Origin: Rhizophagus irregularis | Taxonomy: Eukaryota | NCBI RefSeq assembly: GCF_026210795.1 | Contig: NC_089435.1 | Span: forward strand, 434,001 to 498,000 | Length of the DNA: 64,000 nt | Direction: 5' to 3' | Shown: piece after piece, positions 7,804 to 64,000 of the stretch | Layout: every line of letters starts with the position of its first letter | Numbering within the stretch: position 1 is the first letter of the stretch | Made by a program: the position numbers and the translations under genes | The notes under the pieces: model-generated | Databases searched by the model: none | What the model was told of the DNA's origin: nothing | The model's input: only the letters and a program-made list of their open reading frames with translations

Positions 7804-10800
7804 TTAATTAATCATAAAATTTACCTTAATTGCACAGTCTAAGCAATCAGTATTATCATCTGCGTATTTTGGAAGATTTTCCGTAAAAGGATTGAGTAAT
7901 CTAGATGTATAGAAAGCTTGAGAGTGAGTTGTTGAATGATTATTTTTACCTACTCCATTATTATTGTATCTATATTCTTCTGCTTCTTTGAATTGATCGT
8001 CATTATTTGAATAAAATTGCTTAATTAATTCTTCCACTTCAGCAACATTAGGCCTATTCATTGGATTTAAATCCAAACACTTTATCATTAGGTCAATATA
8101 ACAATTAGGTGCTTCTTGCTCATTTGTTTCTGGTCTAATTCCTTTACAAATATCTAATGCTAATAATCCATCATGAGCACGATTTGCAAATGGTTGTTTT
8201 TCAGTTGCCACAAAATACATCATCATTCCAAAGCTATATATATCTGCTGCTTTAGTATAAGGTCTTCCTCTTAATACTTCAGGAGCTACGTAGGGCATAA
8301 CTCCATAAGTTTTTGTTTCATCTATGTTATTAACTTCTCCACTTGATCCCATATCTGAAATATAGTTTGAAGTAGCCCAATAATAAGTATCCTTAAATAA
8401 TATATTTCCTGTATGAAAATCACGATGAACCATCTGTTTTTGATGCATTTCTTTAAGACCATTAATAATATTATTCAACACTTTTAATTTATTTGACCAA
8501 CTAAAGTTTTTATGATTATTATTTAACCAATTATTAAAATTTCCACCTCTTGCATGTTGAAGAACCATAATATAATCTTCTGTATCTGGGTTTTGAGATA
8601 TACCATATATTTTAAGAATTTCACCAGAATTGTCAAAATTATTAAACCTACTAATTGAATATGCTTTAACCTAAAAAAAGAAAAATAATTACTAATTATT
8701 ATATTTAAGAAAATGTACTCAAATTAAATATTTTCGTACCTCACTTAGAAATTTATTAGAAATATTTTGAGAATCATCTAAACATTTTAAAGCTACCGTT
8801 TTATTTAAATCTCTTGTATATTCCTTTTTATTCCAATATAATGGACCTTCCATCCATCTTGCTGAATATACTTTAGCAAAACCACCTTTACCTATTTCTT
8901 TAATATCATTAAATTGGTTGTATGGTATCCATTCAAATATTATATCATTATGATCATTAATTTTTAATTGCATTTCCTGAATTAATTTATCAATTTGTTC
9001 ATTATTACTGGTCCAGTTCATAAAATTCTCTTTTAAATAATTTATTTGACATGATTTACACCATTTATATTCTGCATTTATATATTTGTTGGCACATTTA
9101 TCACAAAAAATTTTAAAATATTGATTTAATTCAAGGACTATAATATAATTCATTGTATTAGAATTTTGTGATATTCCATACAACTGAAATTCTTTATACT
9201 GTACAATAATCTATTATCAAAAATATTAATATTATAGAAAATATTTAAATTAAATTTACAGAAAATTTACATACCTTGTTCAGAAATTCTTTAGTAATAT
9301 TTTGTGAAATAGTTAGATATATTAAAATAACTACTTTATTTATTGAATTTCTTGTATATTCCTTTTTATTCCAATATAATGGACCTTCTATCCATCTGGC
9401 TGAATATACTTTAGAAAAATTATCTTTGCCTATTTTTTTAATGTCATAAAACTGATTATATGGTATCCATTCAAATATTATATCTCCATGATTATGAATT
9501 TTTAGTTGCATTTCTTGAATTAATTTATCAATAAGTTCATTTTCACTAGACCAGCTTGTGAAATTTTCTTTTAACCAACTTATTTTGCATGATTTACACC
9601 ATTTATACTCCACATTTGTAAAGTACTTTTCACATTTTATACAGTAATTTTCCAAATATTGATCTACATTAAATATCATAACGTAGTCCTTTGTTTTAAG
9701 ATTTTGAGATATGCCATATATATCAACTTTATCATAATATGCTGTAATCTATTAAAAATAAATGTTATTATATCGTAATATACTTGAAATTAATTTCATA
9801 GAAATTTACATACCTCATTTAGAAATTCATAAGTAATATTTTGTGAGTCAACTAAATATTTTAATATAACTGCACTATTTTCTAAACTTCTTGCATATAC
9901 ATTTTTATAATGACTAAATGACAATGGACCATCCTTCCATCTTGCTAAATATGTTGTATGGCTTAATTCTTTGGTATCATTGAATTGATAATATGGTATC
10001 CATTCAAATATTATATCTTTATAATCATTAACTTTTAATTGCATTTTCTGAATTAATTTATCAATAAGTTCATTTTCACTCGTCCAGTTTGTGAAATTTT
10101 CTTTTAACCAACTTATTTCACATGATTTACACCATTTATATTCTGCATTTGTAAAATATTTTTCACATTTTACACAGCAATTTTTCAAATATTGATCTTC
10201 ATTAAATATGACGATGTAATCCATTGTATCAGGATTTTGAGATATACCATATATTTTAATTTTACTATAATACGTTATAATCTATTAAAATAAGTGTCAA
10301 TATATCATAATTTGCTTGAAATTAAATTTATAGAAAATTTACATACCTTATTTAAAAATTCATTAGTGATATTTTGTGAATTAATTAAACATTTTAAAAT
10401 AACTGCTTCATTTGCTGAATTTTTTTTATATCTTTGTTCATTCCAATACAATAAATCATTATTCCATCTTGTTACATATCTTTCTACATTCCAATACAAT
10501 AAACCATCTTTCCAGCTTGCTAAATATGTTGTATTGCTTAATTCTTTAATATCATTAATTTGATTGTATGGTATCCATTCAAATATTACATCTTTGTAAT
10601 CATTAATTTCTAATTGCTCCTTTTGAATTAGATTATCAATTTGTTTATTGCCGCTAGTCCAATTTGTAAAATTTTCTTTTAACCGATATATTTGGCATGC
10701 TTTACACCATTTATACTCTGAATTTGTGTAAAACTTTCCACATGTTACACAGCAATTCTTCAAATATTGATCTTCATTAAATATCATTATGTAATCCTTT

Positions 10801-13441
10801 GTATTAGGATTTTGAGATATTCCATATATTTCAACTTTATCATAATATGCTATAATCTATTAAACATGAATGTCATTATTTTATAATGTACTTGAAATCA
10901 AATTCATAGAAAATTTACATACCTCACTTAAAAATTCATTGGTAATATTTTGTGAATTAATTAAATATTGTAAAATAACTGCTTTATTTGCTGAATGTCT
11001 TATATATTGTTTTTCATTCCAATATAATAAACCATCCTTCCACCTTGCTAAATATGTTGTATTGCTTAATTCTTTAATATTATTGAACTGATAGTATGGT
11101 ATCCATTCAAATATTGTATCATTATAATAATTTATTCCTAATTACATTTCTTGAATTAATTTATCAATATGTTCATTTTCACTGGTCCAGTTTGTGAAAT
11201 ATTCCTTTAACTGACTTATTTCACATGTTTTACACCATTTATATTCCATATTTGTAAAGTACTTTTCACATTTTACACAACAACTCTCCAAATATTGATA
11301 TATATTAAATATCATAATATAATCTCTTGTGTTAGGATTTTGAGATATACCATATATTTTAACTTTATTGTAATATTCTGTAATCTATTAAAAATGAATG
11401 TCAATACATTACTTAAAATTAATACATAGAAAATTTACATACCTCACTTAGAAATTCATTAGTAATATTTTGTGAATCGATCGAATACTTTAAAATAACT
11501 GTCACATTTGCTGAACTTCTTATATATCCTCTTTCATTCCAATATAATAAACCATCCTTCCATCTTGCTAAATATGTTGTATTGCCTAATTCTTTAATAT
11601 CATTAAATTGATAATATGGTATCCATTCAAATATTATATCTTTATAATCACTTATTTCTAATTGCATTTTTTGAATTAAATTATCAACAAGTTCATTTTC
11701 ACTAGTCCAGCTCGTGAAATTTTCTTTTAACCGACTTATTTCACATATTTTACACCATTTATATTCCACATTTGTAAAGTACTTTTCACATTTTATACAG
11801 CAATTCTCCAAATATTGTTCTTTATTAAATACCAAAATGTAATCCGTCGTATTAGGATTTTTAGATATACCATATATTTTAACTTTATCATAATATTCTA
11901 TAATCTATTAAAATGAGTGTCAATATATTATAATGTACTGGAAAGAAATTAAATTCATAAAAATTTACATACCTCATTTAGGGATTCATTAGTAATATTT
12001 TGTGAATTAACTAAATATTTCAACATAACTGCAATGTTTGCTTTATTTCTTGTATATTTATTTTTATAATAACTATATGATAATGGACCATCCTTCCATT
12101 TTGCTAAATATGCTGTATTGCTTAATTCTTTAATATTATTAAACTGATAGCATGGTATCCATTCAAATATTATATCTTTATAATAATTAATTCCTAATTG
12201 CATTTTTTGAATTAGACTATCAATATGCTCATTTTCACTAGTCCAGTTTGTGAAATTTTCTTTTAGTTGACTTATTTCACATATTTTACACCATTTATAC
12301 CTCACATTTGTAAAATACTTTTCACATTTTATACAGCAATTCTCCAAATATTGATCTTTATTAAATACTATAACGTAATCCATTGTATTAGAATTTTGAG
12401 ATATACCATATATTTTGACTTTATCATAATATGCTATAAACTATTGAAAATAAGCGTCAATATATTATAATTTACTTGAAATTAAATTCATAGAAATTTT
12501 ACATACCTCATTTAGAAATTCATTAGTAATATTTTGTGAATCAACTAAATATTTTAATACAACTGCAATATTTGTTAAACTTCTTGTATATACATTCTTA
12601 TAATAACTATATGATAATGGACCATCCTTCCATTTTGCTGAATATGTTATACTGCTTAACTCTTCAATATTATTAAACTTATGATATGGTATCCATTCAA
12701 ATATTACATCTTTATAATTATTAATTTCTAATTGCATTGTTTGAACTAGATTATCAATTTGTTCATTTTCACTAGTCCAGCTTGTGAAATTTTCTTTTAA
12801 CCAACTTATCTGGCACTGCTCACACCATTTACACCAAACATTATGTGCATTTGTATGATACTTTTCACATTTTACACAGAAATTCTTCAAATATTGATCT
12901 TCATCAAATATTATAATATAATTCCTTGTGTTAGGATCTTGAGATATGCCATATATTTTAATTTTATCATAATATGTTATAATCTACGAAATAAGTGTCA
13001 ATATATTATAGTGTATTCGAGATTAAATTCATAAAATTTACATACCTCATTTAAAAATTCATTGGTAATATTTTGTGAATTAACTGAATATTTTAGTATA
13101 ACTTCAATTTTTGCTTTATTTCTTGTATATTCATTTTTATGATAGCTATATGATAATGGACCATCATTCCATTTTGCTGAATGTGTTGTATTGCTTAATT
13201 CTTTAATATTATTAAACTGATGATATGGTATCCATTCAAATATTACATCTTTATAATCATTAATTCCTAATTGCATTGTTTGAATTAATTTATCAATTTG
13301 TTCGTTTTCACTTGTCCAGTTCGCAAAATTTTCTTTTAACCAACTTATTACACATAGCTTACACCATTTATACCGTTCGTTTGTGTATATTTTAGAACAT
13401 TTTACACATGCTTTTCTTAACAAATCTTCCATCCTTGACAC
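7804..13441 (-). CDS. Multi-exon tyrosine-kinase-like kinase with 9 tandem Zn-knuckle/kinase N-lobe cassettes (about 1684 codons if all exons are joined; exon 5 has an in-frame TAA)
   Basis: Exons 13441-13046, 12983-12507, 12440-11973, 11904-11443, 11384-10923, 10856-10347, 10281-9814, 9748-9275, 9210-8740, 8670-7804. All exon lengths are multiples of 3; all introns are 58-69 bp GT-AG, phase 0. Exon 9 has IGKGGFAKVY and VALK; the last exon has HRDFHTGN, SDMG, YVAPE, DIYSFG. CAA>TAA at 11144-11142. Confidence 0.85.
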
Positions 13442-14708: not shown

Positions 14709-17475
14709 CCCTATAAGAAATATGTATACGGAAAGGATACGTTTTGTATACATTTTATGTACGTTTCTATAGATTCCGTATACAAATTCCGTATATTTAA
14801 TAAGCAATTCATTTTTGAACATTTTTTAAAAAAACTAATGTATAAGAAATGTATACGGAAAAAATTAATCATGCGGAATGTATATGGAATTTTTAAACTT
14901 TTATTTTTATTTTATTTTTATTTTTAAAATACGGACACGACTGGGGTCGAACGCTAAATAGGAATAAACATGATCTAAAAGAACAATAAATTCTAAGCTA
15001 ATGTTAAACCCAACCTCTCAGGAGGAGCCCGAAGGGGTCGTCTTACCCACAGAGATTTAGGGACCCACGCATAGCGTGGACCCCCTAAATCTGCTCTCAT
15101 ACCAGTACCCACCTTATGCAATGGTAGTTCGTTTCTATACAAAGTCCCTAAGGACCCGCCGCCCATGTACACTACACTAGGTATGAGCCGACTGCAATGT
15201 ATCCAAGGCTCACGCAAATTGGTGGACCACCATAGGTGGTTAGTACTCCTGCCCGCACTATTATATCCCCATAGGGGCCTATATCGGGTACCAAGATGCT
15301 TTAACAGAGTCATAGGACCATCTGGCATATCGGATATGCTGGAACCGCAGTACGGGGCCACTATCCCTTGGTTATATCTGAAGTCAAATGACCATTTCTA
15401 GGACTCGCCATACCAGTCTACCAATGATCACATCTACCACCTTACCATTCGGTAGGCATCATTTCAGCTCCCCCTATAAACCCTTACTTTGATGAGTTTG
15501 ATCTTCCGATCTTCCTTTCTGTCTTGTTTTCTCTTGTCTTATTTTTGTTATTTTTTCTAAATTTTTCTTCTTTTTCGTCACCCCCCTTTTAAAAAAAAAT
15601 TTTTTTTTTCGTACCTCACTTTAAAAATTTTTCTTTTTCATCACTCTCCTTTAAAAAAAAATTTTTTTTCATCACTCCCTTAAAAAAAAAAATTTTTTTG
15701 ATTTTATTCTTTTATTCCCACTCTTCTAAAAATTTTCTTCTTTCTATTTCTATTTCCTCTTATAAAAAATTTTTTATTTTTCTAACTTTGACGTCCTCCC
15801 TTTAAAAAAAAAATTTTTTTTAACTCTCCTAACTTCGTTACCCTCTTTTTAAAAAAATATTTTTTTTTGATTTATTCTTTATTCCCTTTCTTTTTTATTT
15901 ATATTTATCCCTTTTTTTATTTCATAGGCCAGCAGATTTTTTTTTGTGAGAAGATTCAATTTTTTTGTATATCAGTTTGGGAGTCCTTTCCTTTTCCCTA
16001 TAAGAAATATGTATACGGAAAGGATACGTTTTGTATACATTTTATGCACGTTTCTATAGATTCCATATACAAATTCCGTATAATTAATAAGCAATTCATT
16101 TTTGAACATTTTTTTAAAAAACTAATGTATACGGAAAAAATTAATCATACGGAATGTATACGGAATTTTTAAACTTAATATTTTTAGAAAATAATTTTAC
16201 AAAAATCTCGTATCATAACACGAGATCACGTGATTGTTTATTGTTTTGTTATGATACGTTTTTTGTTTTTATATAAACCCTTACTTTGATGAGTTTGATC
16301 TTCCGATCTTCCTTTCTGCCTTTCCCTTCCTTCTCTTTTCTCTTGTCTTATTTTTGTTATTTTTTTTAAATTTTTCTTCTTTTTTCGTCATCCCCCTTTT
16401 AAAAAAAAATTTTTTTTTGATTTTATTCTTTTATTCCCACTCTTCTTTTTTTTAAAAAAAATTTCTTCTTTCTATTTCTATTTCCTCTTTATAAAAAATT
16501 TTTATTTTTCTAACTTTGACGTCCTCCCTTTAAAAAAAAAATTTTTTTTAACTTTCCTAATTTCGTTACTCTCTTTTTAAAAAAATTTTTTTTTTGATTT
16601 ATTCTTTATTCCCCTTTCTTTTTTATTTATATTTATCCTTTTTTTTATTTTATAGGCCAGCAGATTTTTTTTTGTGAGAAGATTCAGTTTCTTTTTTTCT
16701 TTTTTGTAGATCAGTTTGGGAGTCCTTTCCTTTTTGTAGGATTGTTCAGGATTTTTTTCTTTTTTTAGGTCAGTTCAAATTTTCTTTTTTTTTTTTTGTA
16801 AGTTGGGTTCAGATTCTTTTATTTTTGTAGGTTGTTTCAGTTTTGTTGCTTTAGAGTCTTCTTTTTTTGTAGGTCAGTTTTGGATTTATTTTGTTGTTTT
16901 GGTTTCTTTTTCATCAGATGCTTTCATTTATGTAGGTCAGACATTCTGGAGTTCTCTTTCTTTTTTTGTAGGAATGCTGACCTTTGGTGACTTGGACGAT
17001 TGCAGATACTATATGAAGGGGGGTTTTTTTTTTCCAATTAAGTTAGACATTCTTATGTTTCTTTTTTTTGTTTTTTTTAGGTTGTTTGACTCTAAATGAA
17101 CCTGAACTTATAGATAATTTTGGTTGCAATAGGTGGCCTTAATAAGGAGGGAATTTTCATAATGTATTTGTATTTTGTTTATTTTTTATTTTTTATTTAA
17201 TTTAATAAAGTAAAATTAGATTTATGTAAATATAATTATAGTAAACTGTAATACAAATAGTAAATTCAGTGACCAAATCGTATAAATTTCGTGGTAAAAT
17301 CAGTGATCAAATCATGTAAATTCCATATGAATTCCATGCAAATTCCGTATCCAAACCATATTTTTAGTGATACGGAATTGTGCATTTTTCCGTATCCTAT
17401 TATGATACGTTATTTCTAAGGAAAAAAAATCGTATAAAAACTTTATAAAAAACGTATCCCAATTTTTTTATAGGG
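14709..17475. mobile_element. Non-autonomous CMC/EnSpm-like DNA element with internal tandem duplication
   Basis: Ends ccctataa...ttataggg with 3-bp TSD aag (14706-14708, 17476-17478); ATACG subterminal repeats. The left end is repeated at 15996, and 15475-15995 duplicates ~16272-16735. Confidence 0.6.
14900..15475 (-). mobile_element. 5'-truncated copy of the structured RNA retro-module (SINE-like)
   Basis: Close reverse-complement match to 33630-34190, ending in a (TAAAAA)n tail at ~14927-14900; inserted inside the CMC-like element. Confidence 0.75.
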
Positions 17476-32414: not shown

Positions 32415-33005
32415 AGAATATTAGTAACCCTCCCGAATCAAAAAAAAAAAAACAAACCCACCTTGCAATTCTGAAGCCCAAGTTGGCTTAAGCCTTTCCT
32501 AAAAAAAGAAAGAAAAAGGGAAAAAGGGACGTTAGTAATGTTTCCAAATCAAAAAACAACAAAAAAAATTAAAGAAATAAGGAACATCCACCCATCTTGC
32601 AATTTAAAGTCCAGGTCGAGTTCAAACTGTTCCTAAAAAAAGGTAAAAGGGAACATTAGTAATGTTTCCAAATCAAAAAAACAACAAAAAAAATTAAAGA
32701 AATAAGGAACATCCACCCATCTTGCAATTTAAAGTCCAGGTCGAGTTCAAACTGTTCCTAAAAAAGGTAAAAGGGAACATTAGTAATGTTTCCAAATCAA
32801 AAAAACAACAAAAAAAATTAAAGAAATAAGGAACATCCACCCATCTTGCAATTTAAAGTCCAGGTCGAGTTCAAACTGTTCCTAAAAAAAGGTAAAAGGG
32901 AATATTAGTAATGTTTCCAAATCAAAAAACAACAAAAAAAACCAAAAAGCAGAGTAATAAAATGAAATACCTACCTACTTTGCAATTTTGAAATTTGGGT
33001 TGAAG
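32415..33005. repeat. Tandem repeat, ~123-bp unit, 3 near-identical plus 2 degenerate copies
   Basis: aaaagggaacattagtaatgtttccaaatc...gtccaggtcgagttcaaactgttcct starts at ~32520, 32646, 32768 and 32894. Confidence 0.9.
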
Positions 33006-33249
33006 TTTCTATAAAAAAATGAAAATGGAATATTAGCTGTATTGGCTAACATTCTCAGTTTAAAAAAATAATGTTTCCCTAACCTTCTTAAATACCATTG
33101 TGAGTTATTCTATCAGTTATAAAGTTCCAAAGAGCTACTATTCAACCAAAAAAAGTTTTTTTTACAATAAAAAAAGATCGATGATCATAACAATTATTAA
33201 AATTGGTGCGTTGTCGGTTCATTTTCTCGAAAAAGGGTCAGATAATCTT

Positions 33250-33456
33250 CCCCAGCGTCGCCCCAAGATTTTTCACCCCACGTGACCTGCATAAAATGTC
33301 ACCCCGCGTCACACCTCACCGTTTTCATTTTTTCATAAGTAATTCTGGGGACAGAGAAAATTTTTAGTGGTGAAAAAATATTTTTTCACTCCCCCTTAAA
33401 CATCACCGGTCATGTGGGGTGGAATTTTACTTAGAAATCTTGGGGCGATGCTGGGG
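33250..33456. mobile_element. MITE
   Basis: TIR ccccagcgtcgccccaagattt / aaatcttggggcgatgctgggg; second inner pair ccccacgtgacc/ggtcatgtgggg; no TSD seen. Confidence 0.65.
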
Positions 33457-33469
33457 TAAATGGGTCAGA

Positions 33470-34190
33470 GGGGGATTGGCGTCCCTAGTGTAATGGCCTA
33501 AGGCGTCTACACTCCCTATTGATCTGACCAATCAATAGGACGCAGGTTCAGATCGTCCAGCCAATGATCCTTGCTACAAATATTACTGCGTGCACAGCCA
33601 CCAACTGTGTTGAAGATCCCGTACCTTTAGGGGGAGCTGAAATGATGCCTACCGAATGGTGAGGTGGTAGATGTGATCATTGGTAGACTGGTATGGCGAG
33701 TCCTAGAAATGGTCATTTGACTTCAGATAACCAAGGGATAGTGGCCCCGTACTGCGGTTCCAGCATATCTGATATGCCAGATGGTCCTATGACTCTGTTA
33801 AAGCATCTTGGTACCCGATATAGGCCCCTATGGGGATATAATAGTACGGGCGGGAGTACTAACCACCTATGGTGGTCCACCAATTTGCGTGAGCCTTGGA
33901 TACATTGCAATCGGCTCATACCTAGTGTAGTGTACATGGGCAGCGGGTCCATAAGGACTTTGAATAGAAACGAACTACCATTGCACTACGCCTGGGTACT
34001 GGTATGAGAGCAGATTTAGGGGGTCCACGCTATGCGTGGGTCCTCTAAATCTCTAGAGGCAAGATGACCCCTTCAGGCTTCTCCCGAGAGGTTGGGTTTA
34101 TCATTAGCTTAGAATTAATTGTTCTTTTAGATCATGTTTATTCTTATTTAGCGTTCGAGTCCAGTCGAGTCTATATTTTAAAAATAAAAA
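33470..34190 (+). ncRNA. Putative highly structured non-coding RNA module (SINE-like), unknown family
   Basis: GC-rich, many stems, three C-TAT-G hairpins, Pol III A/B-box-like motifs at 33486-33496 and 33545-33554, own TAAAAA tail; second copy at 14900-15475. Confidence 0.5.
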
Positions 34191-34766
34191 TTTTTTTTTT
34201 TTATTTTATTTTTAAAATATAGACTCGACTGCCGAACGCTAAATAAGAATAAACATGATTTAAAAAAACAATAAATTCTAAGCTAATGATAAACCCAACC
34301 TCTCAGGAGGAGCCTGAAGGGGTCGTCTTGCCTCTTATTCAATAGAACAATCAGGTATAACCGGGAGTCTAGAAAGTACTATCGAATGAAAAAGAAGAAC
34401 TAAAAAAATTAAATTTAAAACAGTCTTACCAAAATTCCAAGAAAAATGAACAAGAAAAATTAATAAAACCCGTATTTTGCTTTCAGCCCTAAGGCTGCCA
34501 CTTGTCAATACTGTCATAAGTGGAGTGGTTCATACTATTCTAAATTGTTTAATATATTTACATATATACATGATGACGTAGGGGTAAGTTAGACGCCAAA
34601 ATGTGTAATGTAAATTATAAAGTAGGAAAAAATGTTATAAGACTCATTACATGGAAAATATACATATATAAAGAAAACAAAAAAAACTAATTTAATTAGA
34701 ATTAAGACTAGTAAATAGGGAGTCAGGTAAATAACTATTCGCTGGTCTTGGTCTTTTATTGTCGTG

Positions 34767-36290
34767 TCATTGTGATGAAGCGGAAGAATTGGTCAACGTA
34801 TCCCTCTTGTTAGGTCGGTATTCCACTGTTTTAGTTTCATCTGATGTGTATGAAGGAGAACCAAAAAGGTCTGTATGGTAATCAGGCGGGTAGTAAGGCC
34901 GAGGAGCGTACGGTTTGCTCATAAAGTCTTCATAATCTTGATGCTTTTCCATCCATTTCTTCCACTTGTGATGCTGTTTCTTTTTGGAAGGTTTTGGAGG
35001 TGGTGGAGGTTGTTTCATATACTTATGGTAGTCTTTAGTCCAGACCGTAATTTGTCGAGTCAACATTGCTCGACGATAATAATGTTTGAGTGTAGTACCT
35101 ATAGCGTTAGCGGTGGATGAATCGTAATCTAAAGGATTAGATTGACGTATTTCGATACTGGGAGGTAAATCGGGTTGAATAGGGTTGTATTGTAAGTGAT
35201 AACTACTGTCCACTTTTGACGGGTCTACGGGGTTATAACCGTAATAAACAGGAGTACGTTTAAGTGGTTCTAAAGAGCCACCGAGCACCGCAATTTCTTC
35301 AGCATTCAAATAATGGGGGATTGTATTGGCACCAGAAGGCCTATATGATGTCGAAGGTTGTGAACCAACTATAGGCGTAATACTGGAATTCTTCAGCGAA
35401 TGGTAAGGTATGTTAAATGTATAGTCATCGGGATCAGGTAAAAATTTTCCTATTGAAAAACGTTTGAATTTCAGGTGGTGAAGAGGTGAGTAAATGTGTT
35501 GAGATTCATGGAATAGGAAGCGAAAACGTCTCCCTGCTGCGAGTTTATCTTCTTTCATAGTGCGGGATGTAGGGTTAATATTTTTAAACACCCGTGCACA
35601 ATGTCTCTTAAAGCGGGTTTCCTGTTTGCGTTTCGTTACAGGGTTACTGCTGAGGTCGAAGCTGAAATTCGAAAGGTGTTTCCTATAAATGTAGGCGCCT
35701 GGGTGCTTTCGCACGAAATTACTACTGTTGGCTGCATAACATACATTGTATCGAATACCAAGACGATTGGAAAAAATATCATTTTTCCATCGATGTTGCC
35801 AAAGATCATATACATGATTTGCGTGTGAAGATTTTGAATTTATAAATCCTGGGTCTGAATCAGGCACAGGTTTCAGATGGTGGTTGATTTCTGTTCTCGA
35901 GAATTCAGATTGATGAGTACCACAAGCACGTCTATTTAAAGACATGACGAAAGGGCTCGGGCTATGACACCAGGTGAAAGGGTTTAATGAACCAGGTGCG
36001 CAAGCATGTTCACAAGGAATGTAAATGCCAAAGTGGAAGCGATAGCGCTTATAAGAAAACGAGAAGAAAGTGCGGGTAATGGAGTTCTTCAAAGTTCTTT
36101 TAGAAGCACGTGACTTGATAAAGTTAATTTGTTCCAATAATTTCCGGCGAATCAAATCAAAATACTTTTGTTGAATACGTCGAGGTAAAACTTTTTGTAA
36201 AATAAAAAAGTGTGTGAGCATTTTACTAATTTGATATTTTGTGTTAGGCAAATAACTTGTGGATGTGTATCGAATAGGCGTAGAATCCAT
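34767..36290 (-). CDS. Intronless 507-aa basic protein of unknown function carried by the composite element
   Basis: Uninterrupted ORF, GC richer than host genes; Cys/His cluster (CEHAC...CH...CGTH), Arg/Lys-rich, Pro-rich C-terminus; no RT, endonuclease or transposase motif recognised. Confidence 0.75.
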   Translation of the reverse strand: MDSTPIRYTSTSYLPNTKYQISKMLTHFFILQKVLPRRIQQKYFDLIRRKLLEQINFIKSRASKRTLKNSITRTFFSFSYKRYRFHFGIYIPCEHACAPGSLNPFTWCHSPSPFVMSLNRRACGTHQSEFSRTEINHHLKPVPDSDPGFINSKSSHANHVYDLWQHRWKNDIFSNRLGIRYNVCYAANSSNFVRKHPGAYIYRKHLSNFSFDLSSNPVTKRKQETRFKRHCARVFKNINPTSRTMKEDKLAAGRRFRFLFHESQHIYSPLHHLKFKRFSIGKFLPDPDDYTFNIPYHSLKNSSITPIVGSQPSTSYRPSGANTIPHYLNAEEIAVLGGSLEPLKRTPVYYGYNPVDPSKVDSSYHLQYNPIQPDLPPSIEIRQSNPLDYDSSTANAIGTTLKHYYRRAMLTRQITVWTKDYHKYMKQPPPPPKPSKKKQHHKWKKWMEKHQDYEDFMSKPYAPRPYYPPDYHTDLFGSPSYTSDETKTVEYRPNKRDTLTNSSASSQ

Positions 36291-37441
36291 GTGATAATCA
36301 TTGGTGTGTAAAAATAAATGAAGATTATTGGTGTCCGAGAAAGGATCAGCAAGCTCAAAAAAGAAACTTTTTGAGCGCCTAAATTCATAAATCTTGTTAT
36401 AACCGGTTCAGCGTTTAGTCATCACGTGAAATTTTTTCACAGAGACAAGGAAAGTATTTTCATGAGTATTGGACGTATTATTAAACGTTTTTAAGGGAAA
36501 AGGTAAAGGTAAAATAGTCTGGTCGTTATGAACAGACTGAAGTGGAACAGGTATATCTTCTGTATCCATATCTCTCAGAGGTCAAGGGTAATAAAAGGAG
36601 ACCTTTCCGTAGAGGCCACCGAGTGGTCCTCGCTCCTTACAAAAAATATAAGTATTTGTGAAAAAAAAGGTATATTACTGCGGTTTTTTAACAAAAAAAA
36701 ACGGAAAGGGGAGAGAGTTTTTTTTCTTAAAAATAAAAATAAAAATAAAAATAAAAATAAATGGGTCAGATACGAACGGTCACGTGACTCCGGACGAAGT
36801 GCTTGACGTCATTAATGATTTCAGGAAAAAAGGAAAAACTGGAGAAGTACCAATTTCCGTGATTCTATATAATAAGGTGAATCAAGCTTGTTCATTGCAT
36901 CTGCCTGAAATTAAAAAAGAAGAAATTTCAGAAGAAAAAATTGGCCACAAGCGATGTAGCAAGGAATAATTGAGTAGGGTCAGTTAGTAGTGATGAAACT
37001 GATGGGGAGAGTGAATCAGAAAATATTGCTACAGTAGTGGCGAAAAAAGAAAAATCTGCTCAAGGAGGGAAAGGTAAAAAAGGTGGGAATCAAAGAAAAA
37101 GAATAAGAAAAAGTGATAAATTTGTTAGTAAAGTATCTATCGCTAGTGATAGTAGGTATTAGCGTAGATTTTAATTAAAAATTAAAATTATAAATAGCTA
37201 GTACGTTTTGGTAGTCTTAGTTTGTTTAGTTTTATTTTATTTTTATTTTTTTTAACAGGTTTTTAGATAGATACTTTATTAGGAGATGCATGTCGTCTAA
37301 ATTATGCAATAATTGTTATAATAATAATAAAGTTTTTAAAAAAAAAATTATTAAAATTGGATCGACCTCAGCAAAATTATTTTCCGTGATGATCACATGA
37401 TGACTTAGGGAATCAGAGTTGTTATCTATATAAATAAATAT

Positions 37442-61276: not shown

Positions 61277-64000
61277 TTAATCTACAACCATACATTCAAA
61301 ACACTCAGACTTTTCTTGAACGATTTCCTGAACTATGAATTTGGACTTTTCTTGAGCTAAAATTTCAGTAAATTTAGTAAATTTGCGACTTGTATAATAT
61401 GCTTGTGGATGAGATTGCATAATAGAAGTATTTGCTTGTTCTTGTGCTAAAGTTTTGTTTGCTTCTACAAATTCAAGCATATCATCTTTTAATTGATTAT
61501 CAATATTATGTACTACAAAGTTATAATCTCCATCCCTGTTTATTGCATAATATTCATTATTACATCTAATCCATCCAGATACAATATTTTCAAGCATTCC
61601 TATGGTTGGTCTATTTGAGGGATTTGAATCCCAACATTTTTTCATTAAATCTATATAACATTTTGGAGTATTTTTTATAATTTCAGGACGTTCCCCTTTA
61701 CAAATATTCAAGGTAAGGTCATAATCATGTGCTTCATATTTAAATGGGGGAATACCTGATGTAAATTCCCACATTATCATTGAAAGACTATAAATATCAC
61801 TTGCTGAAGTATAGGGTTTGTTTCTTAATATTTCAGGAGCCATATAAGGTAAAACTCCATAAATTTCATCATCATCATTACCAGAATCTTGTGAATTGTT
61901 TATAGGTTTACATAATCCTAAATCAATAATAAATAATTCATTGTAATTATCTGACATTAATATATTACCATCATGAAAATCGCCATGAGTTAAATTTGAT
62001 TCATGAATTACTTTAAGTCCTAATATAATTGTTTTCAATAATTGTAGCTTATCTTGCCACTTAAATTTAATTATATCAGGTAAACATTTTCTCAAACTTC
62101 CTTTTTTCGCATAACTCATTACAATTATATAATTTAAATTATTTGGATCTTGAGTAATTCCAAAGAATTGAATAAATTTTGAAAATGATTTCTTTTGACA
62201 ATTATAATGATATTTCCACTATATAGACGATAAAAAAATTATTAAATTTTTTGCAAAAGAAAATAAAATTTGCTATTAAAATAAATACTATACCTCATCC
62301 AGAAATTTACTATTTAAACTTGATGAATTATTAAGTATTTTAAGAACAACCTCATAATCTATTTGTCTATTCCATTGTTGTTGTTTAAAATTCCAACTAT
62401 AAATAGGTCCATCTAACCAGATAGCTTTATGGATTTCTCCAAATCCTCCTTTATCATAATAATAAATACTTGACAATTTATTATAAGGTATCCATTCTAA
62501 AATTTCATAACTATTTTTAGTATTCTGTTGTGCTTCTTGAATAAATTTATCAATAAATTCATTTTTACTAGTCCATTTTGAAAAATCTTGTTGAAATCGT
62601 CTAGTATTACATTGTTGACACCACTGATAATCAGTATATGGTTGCATGCATTCATTACATGATTCAACTTCATTTTTAGAATTTACGTTATTTTCTGCTA
62701 CTTTTTGATACCAATAAAAAGCTTTTTCTAAATTCTTCTTTGTCCCTTCTCCATCATAATACCAATTGGCTAAATTAAGCATTGCTTTAATATGATCTTT
62801 TTCTGCTGCTTTTTGGCACCAACGAAAGGCTTTTTCTAAATTCTTTTCTGTTCCTTCTCCATTATAATAGCTATTGGATAAATTAAACATTGCTACTTCA
62901 TCACCATTTTCTGCTGATTTTTGAAACCAATGAAAGGCTTTTTCTAAATTCTTTTCTGTTCCTTTTCCATTATAATAATTACTGGCTAAACTAAGCATTG
63001 CATTAATACACCCATTTTCTGCTGCATTTTGATTCCAATAAAAGGCTTTTCCTAAATTCTTTTCTGTTCCTTCTCCATTTTTATAACATATGGCTAAATC
63101 TTTCATTGCATACTTCTCGCCATTTTCTGCTGCTCTTTGAAACAAATAAAAGGCTTTTTCTAAATTCTTTTCTGTTCCTTCTCCATTTTTATAACTAGTT
63201 GCTAAATTAAACATCGCTACTTCATCACCATTTTCTACTGCTTTTTGATACCAATAAAAGGCTTTTTCTAAATTCTTTTCTGTTCCTTTTCCATAATAAT
63301 AACTATCAGCTAAATTATTCATTGCTTTAATATAATCTTTTTCTGCTGCTTTTTGATACCAATGAAAGGCTTTTTCATAATTCTTTTCTATTCCTTTTCC
63401 ATCATAATAACTATTGGCTAAATTATTCATTGCTTTAATATAATCTTTTTCTGCTGCTTTTTGATACCAATAAAAAGCTTTTTCATAATTCTTTTCTGTT
63501 CCTTCTCCATTTTCATAGCATATAGCTAAATTAAGCATTGCTTTTTCATAACCATTTTCTGCTGCTTTTTGATACCAATGAAAGGCTTTTTCATAACTAT
63601 TTTCTGTTCCTTCTCCATAATAATAACTATCAGCTAAATTAAACATTGCTACTTCATTACCATTTTCCGTTGCTTTTTGATACCAATGAAAGGCTTTTTT
63701 ATAATTATTTTCTGTTCCTTCTCCATGATAATAACTATTGGCTAAATTATTCATTGCTACTTCATCACCATTTTCTGCTGCTTTTTAATACCAATAAAAG
63801 GCTTTTTCTAAATTCTTTTCTGTTCCTTCTCCATTATAATAGCTATTGGATAAATTAAACATTGCTACTTCATTACCATTTTCTGCTGCTTTTTGATACC
63901 AATGAAAGGCTTTTTCATAATTCTTTCCTGTTCCTTTTCCATTATAATAACTATTAGCTAAATTAAACATTGCTACTTCATCACCATTTTCTGCTGCTTT
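61277..64000 (-). CDS. Sel1-repeat (>=12x) non-RD tyrosine-kinase-like kinase; 5' end outside the window; nonsense codon in the repeat array
   Basis: 108-bp Sel1 repeats at ~62700-64000; CxxC..WCxxC; KGGFG, VVLK; phase-0 intron 62293-62219; exon 62218-61277 with HGDFHDGN, DLG, YMAPE. CAA>TAA at 63787-63785. Confidence 0.85.

Follow-up and report, generated by a model that had tools for sequence, protein, structure and literature searches.

Fungi carry tRNA-derived SINEs (SINE2), and in U6-L1 chimeras both parts lie in the sense orientation within one pair of target site duplications (TSDs). The closest described systems that encode a protein are the ORF1-present bipartite non-autonomous LINEs, namely HAL1 (from L1), HeT-A (from Jockey), and Ag-Sponge (from CR1); the accessible portions of two accounts of such elements name no fungal example of an ORF1-only non-autonomous LINE (PMC5786205; PMC5753468). 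For Rhizophagus irregularis, the report on a curated transposable element library describes new SINE and LINE families and, among the elements upregulated in arbuscule cells, counts more SINEs (158; Table S4) than members of any other class (PMC11075540).

The window analyzed here (64,000 nucleotides of R. irregularis contig NC_089435.1) contains a locus that is probably the product of three nested insertions, which likely followed one another: first a MITE, then in its right end a SINE-like retroposon, and last a 2.5-kb unit that lacks reverse transcriptase (RT), encodes a DUF8211 protein, and lies antisense in the SINE tail (Table 1). DUF8211 units likely constitute a family of non-autonomous, protein-coding non-LTR retroposons of the HAL1/HeT-A type, with a 3′ end common to the SINE and a LINE RT likely borrowed. 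A preliminary description had presented the locus as a single composite insertion; its two-tailed architecture is accounted for by ordinary nesting, and the second duplication (TTAAAAATAAAAAT), the free copy of the SINE-like module, and the MITE had been overlooked.

Table 1. Features of the nested locus and of the second SINE copy (window coordinates)
Feature	Position	Strand	Remarks
MITE TSD, left copy, 10 bp (GGGTCAGATA)	33235..33244	+	right copy whole only in empty-site view (33462-33469 plus 36771-36772)
MITE, 217 bp, probable oldest layer	33245..33461	.	~27-bp terminal inverted repeats (inverted-repeat search: 27 nt, 89%)
Outer TSD (SINE insertion), left copy, TAAATGGGTCAGA	33457..33469	+	12-13 bp, first T ambiguous
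SINE-like head and body, up to split point in tail	33470..34191	+	94.3% to second copy in window; fold z -3.44
Pol III type-2-like promoter (putative)	33486..33555	+	A box 33486-33496 exact; B-box-like 33545-33555, 2 mismatches; starts 59 nt apart
SINE 3′ end common with DUF8211 unit, left palindrome arm	34055..34191	+	repeat and alignment comparison
Inner duplication, left copy, TTAAAAATAAAAAT	34178..34191	+	14-bp repeat
DUF8211 unit, 2,535 bp	34192..36726	-	157-nt leader, 625-codon frame, 500-nt 3′ UTR with tail
DUF8211 unit 3′ end and tail, right palindrome arm	34192..34335	-	TAAAAA-type repeats, then A run
Conserved 3′-UTR hairpin	34498..34523	-	6-bp stem kept in related locus L002, one compensatory pair change
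DUF8211 (PF26638) frame	34692..36569	-	ATG at 36569, end 34692; stops at 36410-36408 and 34769-34767
5′ leader of DUF8211 unit	36570..36726	-	A-run-CTCT start, CCGCAGTAA motif; contains both stems named earlier
Inner duplication, right copy, TTAAAAATAAAAAT	36727..36740	+	14-bp repeat
Rest of SINE (TAAAAA)n tail	36741..36757	+	tandem-repeat array, inner duplication
Outer TSD, right copy, TAAATGGGTCAGA	36758..36770	+	direct repeat with 33457..33469
SINE copy 2	14899..15476	-	5′-truncated, with the initial 158 nt missing and neither box present; has a tail of its own; DUF8211 unit absent

The MITE, which we take to be Mutator-like from the length of its TSD, has ends that recur elsewhere, as public contigs with loose ends at 33245 and 33461 show. 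The SINE-like element in its right end is 739 bp, long for a SINE, with a 13-bp TSD, Pol III A/B-like boxes, and a (TAAAAA)5 tail. The outer repeat had been described as a perfect 13-bp TSD, and so it is: it cannot be lengthened, and its two matches in 64 kb compare with 0.01 expected (0 of 100 shuffles reach two). The 3′ tail described at the right end is likewise present, as an array at 36728-36761 (period 6, 5.7 copies, 100%). The A box starts at +17 of the element, and the box pair, which we take to be a Pol III promoter, is the sole such pair in 64 kb with both strands scanned; shuffles produced a pair within the first 30 nt in 0 of 5000 trials and at any place in 6 of 5000. The head may resemble class II tRNA-Ser/Leu; ARAGORN returned no tRNA, Rfam nothing at E≤10, and blastn against phages no match. 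A 104-aa ORF in the element has no Pfam hit and is frameshifted in copy 2, so the element is counted as non-coding.

The module folds more stably than shuffles, and its second copy aligns with it over 566 columns and ends in its own tail. The TSD, the simple-repeat tail, and dispersed copies with 5′ truncation are features of SINEs, and several variant alleles are present in public contigs. No TSD was found around copy 2; a paralogous segment (15996-16418) lacks this copy and has about 85 different bases at that place.

The DUF8211 unit is bracketed exactly by the 14-bp repeat TTAAAAATAAAAAT, which matches nowhere else on the plus strand of the 64 kb. A single further match, on the minus strand, is the tail of SINE copy 2; the total of three compares with 0.24 expected and is reached by 1 of 100 shuffles. 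The TSD of the unit consists of low-complexity tail sequence, and TSD and tail together are known from the window copy only. The second, opposite-strand tail of the preliminary description is accounted for as the remainder of the SINE tail, which a later insertion would have split while duplicating 14 bp; with 34192-36740 removed, the remaining tail resembles that of copy 2. The roughly 135-nt 3′ terminus said to be common to the module and the coding strand of the unit was recovered in an alignment of the palindrome arms spanning 135 columns (114 of 123 positions identical in a second alignment), and the palindrome would follow from two elements with the same 3′ end facing one another tail to tail. 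The SINE body has no similarity to any DUF8211 leader. Rfam matches to the palindrome were hairpin-driven miRNA/sRNA families only, all below gathering scores.

An antisense ORF of 507 codons exists as described (36290-34767, minus strand), but it is not whole: it is the middle of the 625-codon DUF8211 frame, between two in-frame TGA codons, and the window copy is dead as a gene. The frame aligns end to end with an intact 623-aa relative (78.8%, six gap positions). What had been read as a structured 3′ end of the plus strand is the minus-strand 5′ leader plus 54 codons, since 36408-36569 codes on the minus strand; both reported stems (cctttccgt/acggaaagg and gaggccac/gtggtcctc) are present, within the leader, and 36400-36757 folds more stably than shuffles (z -2.90). 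The Rfam hits to the leader and SINE body had E-values of 1.2-9.2 and were set aside as chance, among them GIR1, which scored 10.5 bits where the cut-off is 100. The reported lack of RT holds in domain searches of the locus; the unit has a single ORF and neither RT nor endonuclease, and the same is true of the related locus L002.

Seven distant DUF8211 loci (35-61% protein identity, on contigs of 1.1-3.1 kb) preserve terminal motifs: CCGCAG(T/C)AA stands upstream of the ORF in five of the seven and an A-run-CTCT start in three, with a TTTTTA array in none. L002, whose protein is about 37% identical to that of the window, is the only one with its 3′ side; it has no further ORF ahead of the conserved hairpin and carries the word GACCCCTTC in the same order relative to the hairpin as in the window. 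For the hairpin region these two sequences, the only two compared, gave a local score of 91 (shuffle mean 49, maximum 75 of 200). The L002 contig stops 54 nt past GACCCCTTC. In one run (X4), a contig follows the unit as far as 36701 and then continues in unrelated sequence, the pattern expected of a 5′-truncated copy. Scans for related loci gave 0 of 68 in metagenomes (with a single protein), 0 of 85 in viral sequences, and 0 of 173 in prokaryote genomes, and DNA patterns that included the common 3′ end gave none in viral contigs. Bacterial pattern hits at two loci (L008 and L009) are chance, their likeness being confined to the pattern itself.

DUF8211 is a multicopy family in which every named hit belongs to Glomeraceae. 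The precomputed PF26638 label was carried by 34 of 34 homology matches of the ORF; a separate Pfam scan found no family in ORF507. Among proteins of 74-1449 aa there are 111 homologues, the longest stored being 828 aa, with neither RT nor any Pfam family besides PF26638 listed for them; 860 candidates of 1011-2885 aa included no longer fused form, itself a weak indication. The family comprises 591 clusters at 50% identity, and short fragments are common among its members. It is under purifying selection, with dN/dS of 0.15-0.55 across 21 of 21 pairs (0.20 at a dS of 0.19 for L004/L005). The proteins are basic (pI 9.7-10.2 in 10 of 10), have an NLS-like motif at the C terminus, and are likely zinc-binding, to judge from near-invariant C, C, C, and H residues (69/72, 66/67, 75/75, and 76/76). 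One structural model (P0003: pLDDT 72, pTM 0.41) was matched by nothing in PDB or viral libraries in Foldseek searches at E≤0.001, and its best VIA Z was 5.4, on C-terminal helices. Another with a confident fold (P0058: pLDDT 84.6, pTM 0.71) had no Foldseek hit and a best VIA Z of 3.3 (rmsd 5.5, 68 aligned) among 48,161 chains. Both were searched as whole models, and such a structural null does not amount to a new fold. A PDB sequence-profile search gave one hit (E 0.55), and an Atlas look-up no feature hit for either protein, its structure rows resting on a model of pLDDT 0.28. DUF8211 is not named in the literature searched, which covered few subscription papers and did not extend to Repbase, Dfam, or the R. 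irregularis library; within the same scope, and judged mainly from search listings, no description of the DUF8211/SINE element was found.

In the mechanism that we propose, a LINE endonuclease would nick a T/A step within the SINE tail, and the LINE RT, recognizing the 3′ end of about 130 nt common to SINE and DUF8211 unit, would prime on the tailed RNA of the unit and copy it at full length, with duplication of 14 bp of tail. The unit may be transcribed by Pol II from an internal promoter in its own leader. Its protein, to judge from charge, motifs, and analogy, could bind the RNA of its own unit and help that RNA to enter the nucleus or to reach the partner RT; a comparable role is proposed for the proteins of ORF1-only elements. 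Non-autonomous LINEs of this ORF1-only kind are described in PMC5786205.

The order of insertions is supported by the 10-bp TSD of the MITE, which is split by the SINE insert and restored only in the empty-site view, making the MITE older, and separate insertion of SINE and unit by the SINE copy that stands free of the unit. Against nesting, the duplicated 14 bp belong to the tail, so a tail on both sides could be reached by other routes; landing in the short tail of the one SINE with a matching 3′ end is improbable without some targeting; pattern scans of viral and bacterial sequence brought up no partner LINE; and the primer end offers a single T for pairing with an A tail, where an L1-type TTTT/A nick pairs more strongly. 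The SINE and unit might instead have been joined elsewhere, or at once by template switching, and have arrived as a single 3.3-kb RNA, either a chimera or a read-through of a nested donor. One outer TSD does bracket the whole locus, there is a 4-nt microhomology of the 3′ tail to the target, and among the joints listed for six distinct public runs (three joints being dropped at repeats for X6, and tail repeats skipped) there is neither a SINE-only nor an empty allele. The T12 run at 34191 would, however, stop Pol III before it had transcribed the whole composite, T runs being Pol III termination signals. No identical sister copy is evident from the depth of pieces identical to the window unit against unique flank (50.5 vs 44 in X4 and 252.8 vs 222.5 in X5, with X1 left out at only 6.5 Mb), although depth is not copy number. 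Template switching, one of the origins suggested in the preliminary description, would further require a tailed full-length antisense RNA, of which the relatives give no hint, and the one-TSD, all-sense chimera pattern is absent, the second part being antisense with a duplication of its own; with the inner duplication made of tail and no SINE-only allele seen, it keeps some probability. We regard arrival as one RNA as improbable. That the unit is retro-competent on both strands, each with a tailed 3′ end recognized by RT, or is Penelope-like with inverted termini, as also suggested earlier, seems very improbable. The leader is structured, and where it ends on the plus strand it aligns with the sense 3′ end for about 26 columns, but this likeness is mostly duplicated tail, a (TTTTTA)n tract precedes the conserved 5′ motif in none of the five relatives carrying that motif, and the SINE tail explains the right end. 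Rfam and motif scans gave neither a hammerhead, whose core words occur unpaired and only in the ORF region, nor an HDV-like ribozyme, and there is no RT or GIY-YIG domain; the HDV-like descriptor had one poor candidate, which was discarded.

For the nested unit itself, the part of the preliminary description that has gained support is that of a non-autonomous, protein-coding element with hallmarks of target-primed reverse transcription, whose 3′ end also occurs in a small structured module and which was likely mobilized in trans. The origin of its protein may be viewed in another way: an autonomous LINE of Glomeraceae could have the DUF8211 frame as its ORF1, the unit being an internal-deletion derivative of that LINE, of the HAL1 type, with the nesting unchanged. 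Leader, single ORF, 3′ end, and tail are the layout of HAL1, HeT-A, and Ag-Sponge in one account (PMC5786205), many LINE clades are reported for R. irregularis in the library paper (PMC11075540), and missing fusions do not exclude this origin, ORF1 and ORF2 being separate proteins. Yet the window unit and L002 both lack ORF2 and have the same 3′-UTR hairpin, which implies that the form without RT either is old or has two separate origins, and Pfam scans of nine members found no RRM, CCHC-knuckle, or other ORF1 family; a deletion origin is possible but on the whole unlikely. This account overlaps our preferred one and differs on the origin of the protein. DUF8211 might also be a host gene family and the unit a processed retrocopy whose mRNA ended by chance in a retroposon 3′ end. 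Purifying selection and the NLS-like motif would suit a host nuclear protein, and public assemblies annotate DUF8211 as genes; the colinearity with the 623-aa relative, loci whose frames are either uninterrupted or broken by stops, introns being nowhere evident, the many short fragments, and the terminal motifs kept in distant copies make this quite improbable. A stronger form of the preferred reading is offered tentatively and with some doubt: in arbuscular mycorrhizal fungi, DUF8211 units may form a retroposon lineage that is old and lacks RT, and their protein of about 620-800 aa may be not a LINE ORF1 but a new zinc-containing RNA-binding fold that would bind its own 3′-UTR hairpin and capture a LINE RT, the SINE having the same 3′ end and the landing in its tail being guided by homology over the common 130 nt.

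DUF8211 units are likely a little-noticed family of parasitic retroposons. If so, a Glomeraceae "orphan gene" family of 591 clusters would be mobile-element cargo and not host genes, with consequences for the number of genes counted in these symbionts and for arguments drawn from their orphan genes, and the few protein-coding non-autonomous non-LTR elements would gain a fungal member with a protein kept by selection and so far structurally unmatched. Two-thirds of R. irregularis repeats are reported as unclassified (PMC11075540), and the common 130-nt end could serve as a probe for the partner LINE among them. Hypothetically, the tail-to-tail pair could yield a long hairpin RNA feeding small-RNA silencing of both families.

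Like Penelope-like elements, the locus contains an inverted repeat of an element end, but it has no hammerhead, RT, or GIY-YIG. As in U6-L1 chimeras, one TSD encloses a longer part and, on its 5′ side, a part that resembles a small RNA; the locus differs in that the longer part is antisense with its own duplication. The SINE-like element resembles tRNA-derived SINEs in its 5′ A/B-box-like head, unrelated structured body, simple-repeat tail, TSD, and 5′-truncated copy, and in a 3′ end common with a longer element; its head is not recognized as tRNA by ARAGORN or Rfam, and the known sharer of its 3′ end is itself RT-less. The SINE and LINE families of the R. irregularis library come from the same genus. 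In HAL1, HeT-A, and Ag-Sponge the protein is the ORF1p of the partner, whereas DUF8211 matches no ORF1 family or solved fold; with these elements the DUF8211 unit shares a single protein, the lack of RT, an internal leader, and a tailed 3′ end, and probably also the dependence on a partner RT.

Three layers are nested at this locus: a MITE, a SINE-like element and, on the minus strand, a unit encoding a DUF8211 protein (Pfam PF26638). The MITE has 27-bp terminal inverted repeats, and its ends are found again at other loci in public contigs; GGGTCAGATA adjoins it on the left, and the same 10 bases adjoin its right side only once the 3.3-kb insert is left out together with one outer repeat. Restoration of this repeat provides internal evidence both for the pre-insertion site and that the 13-bp repeat bounding the insert, which is exact and not extendable (two occurrences in the window versus 0.01 expected), is a true TSD, as the preliminary description had claimed. 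The (TAAAAA)n array, the 507-aa ORF and the inverted, tail-to-tail arms (114/123 identical) that it reported are likewise present, and no RT was found in the scanned frames of at least 60 codons (5 of 13 stop-to-stop frames were put to Pfam; the longest of the remaining frames has 103 codons).

Features of the locus and its surroundings (window coordinates unless a metagenome locus is named)
Feature	Position	Strand	Remarks
Kinase and Sel1-repeat ORF arrays	251-1294; 8658-13428; 61277-64000	-	Typical of arbuscular mycorrhizal fungi
Segmental duplication	14709-16734		Local; provides SINE copy 2 with a natural "empty" paralogue; insertion of that copy replaced ~85 bp and made no TSD
SINE copy 2	15476-14899
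Related segments	19660-49766		About seven, 1.4-2.6 kb, 75-93% identity, one orientation; probably a tandem gene family
Tandem repeat	32513-32941		3.5 copies of a 124-bp unit, 97% alike; the MITE lies 300 bp to the right
MITE	33245-33461
Outer 13-bp repeat	33457-33469; 36758-36770
SINE-like element	33470-34191
Hairpin in SINE body	34003-34056		Near-perfect, strong, 21 bp; immediately precedes the shared 3' end; local z -6.15; kept in copy 2
TTAAAAATAAAAAT	34178-34191; 36727-36740
DUF8211 unit	34192-36726	-
DUF8211 frame	36569-34692	-	Stops at 36410-36408 and 34769-34767
DUF8211 leader stems	36585-36712	-	Two crossing stems possible, CCTTTCCGT/ACGGAAAGG and AAGGAG/CTCCTT, surrounding a GC hairpin (pseudoknot-like layout); not seen in distant DUF8211 leaders; Rfam names nothing for the leader
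Right flank	36771-37160		Itself a dispersed repeat; variant copies in public contigs
Metagenome leader stem	L002:122-290		19-nt arms (89%): the conserved A-run-CTCT start pairs with a GAGTTTTTTT word lying 131 nt downstream, closing a long stem
Metagenome direct repeat	L003:1-391		57 nt, 334 nt apart, upstream of DUF8211 ORF; resembles tandem 5'-UTR monomers; CCGCAG motif missing from that leader

Sel1-repeat and kinase genes lie in the window, which is AT-rich. Within it, the TTAAAAATAAAAAT duplication flanking the DUF8211 unit has one further match, in the tail of SINE copy 2; without the unit, the SINE measures 739 bp and ends in a (TAAAAA)5 tail resembling that of copy 2. Copy 2 (94.3% identity over 566 columns) lacks the first 158 nt and the DUF8211 unit and has its own tail; no TSD was found there, and a paralogous segment without the copy has about 85 other bases at that place. 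The full copy starts with an exact A box, with a B-box-like word 59 nt on; no other such pair occurs in the window, and none of 5000 shuffles matches it in the first 30 nt. A tRNA origin is a likely candidate assignment for the SINE head, not a proven one, since ARAGORN, Rfam and blastn name nothing for it. In each of three public runs (X4, X5 and X15), one contig passes from 34057 directly to position 34372 on the opposite strand; these joints read as further copies of the SINE that carry about 37 more bases of the DUF8211 unit's 3' UTR.

A 623-aa relative aligns over its entire length with the broken DUF8211 frame at 78.8%. Because the frame starts at 36569 and this alignment is full-length, what had been described as a plus-strand 3' end consists, on the minus strand, of 54 codons and a 157-nt leader. 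The unit has its own tail at its sense 3' end. The two-tailed, bidirectional reading is not favoured; nor is a chimera, as the inner duplication flanks the DUF8211 unit and a T12 run at 34191 would halt Pol III read-through. The preliminary description is partly confirmed.

Named relatives of the window ORF come from Rhizophagus irregularis, R. diaphanus, R. clarus and Glomus cerebriforme, which indicates an arbuscular mycorrhizal fungus as host, most likely a Rhizophagus. A single-protein search gave 34 hits and a profile search 111, with 591 clusters at E<=0.001 (best 150 of 591 inspected). The proteins are basic (pI 9.7-10.2 in 10/10), with three cysteines and one histidine almost invariant and a C-terminal D(D/E)T...RPxKR word in 14 of the 35 with at least 600 aa. 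The fold of the conserved N-terminal region is predicted with confidence (pLDDT 84.6, pTM 0.71); fold searches with DUF8211 models named no family, and "DUF8211" was not found by name in the literature searched. All 21 pairs have dN/dS of 0.15-0.55; many are near saturation, but the metagenome pairs L004/L005 (0.20 at dS 0.19) and L002/L006 (0.30 at dS 0.54) are not.

Seven short metagenome loci were confirmed out of 183 pattern matches. CCGCAG(T/C)AA upstream of the ORF is kept in five and the A-run-CTCT start in three, and none has a TTTTTA array; L003 lacks both 5' motifs within 530 nt, and L005 starts downstream of their positions. L002, the sole locus with a 3' side (its contig stops before any tail), keeps a 3'-UTR stretch (score 91 versus at most 75 in 200 shuffles) containing a hairpin with one compensatory change, then GACCCCTTC. 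These elements likely form a Glomeraceae family of retroposons that encode a protein, lack an RT and have a SINE as partner. Earlier work describes new SINE and LINE families in R. irregularis, whose sequences could bear on novelty here (PMC11075540), and PMC8647823 gives LINEs as a main small-RNA source and uncharacterised repeats as 24% of the genome.

APE-type endonucleases prefer nicks at T/A steps, and both junctions may be read as such nicks. We propose that a partner LINE recognising the 3' end common to the SINE and the DUF8211 unit would have inserted them by target-primed reverse transcription, that the palindrome would have arisen incidentally, from two elements that share one 3' end lying face to face, and that the DUF8211 protein, judging from charge, motifs and analogy, is most likely a cis-acting escort that binds RNA. 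This nested account is, on balance, probably correct. Counted against it are the low complexity of the inner duplication and the pairing of the primer with the unit's tail by one T only; the DUF8211 TSD and tail are seen in the window copy only. No empty or SINE-only allele is listed in six distinct runs, where joint mapping passes over tail repeats; X4, X5, X6 and X11 may share the insertion, because they hold pieces identical to the window DUF8211 copy. It is improbable that the unit landed by chance in its cognate SINE's tail, even given a density of 7.3 TAAAAA words per kb in the window, and there may be some targeting of that tail.

DUF8211 may be ORF1 of an autonomous LINE. The longest of 261 proteins collected has 828 aa, no Pfam family besides PF26638 is among the matches listed, a search of longer proteins, itself weak evidence, gave no fused form, and the 3' side of L002 has no further ORF. 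For an escort protein dependent on a partner LINE, the closest systems proposed are the ORF1-only non-autonomous LINEs HAL1, HeT-A and Ag-Sponge (PMC5786205, PMC5753468), whose proteins, according to PMC5786205, probably form multimers with those of the partner and promote transposition.
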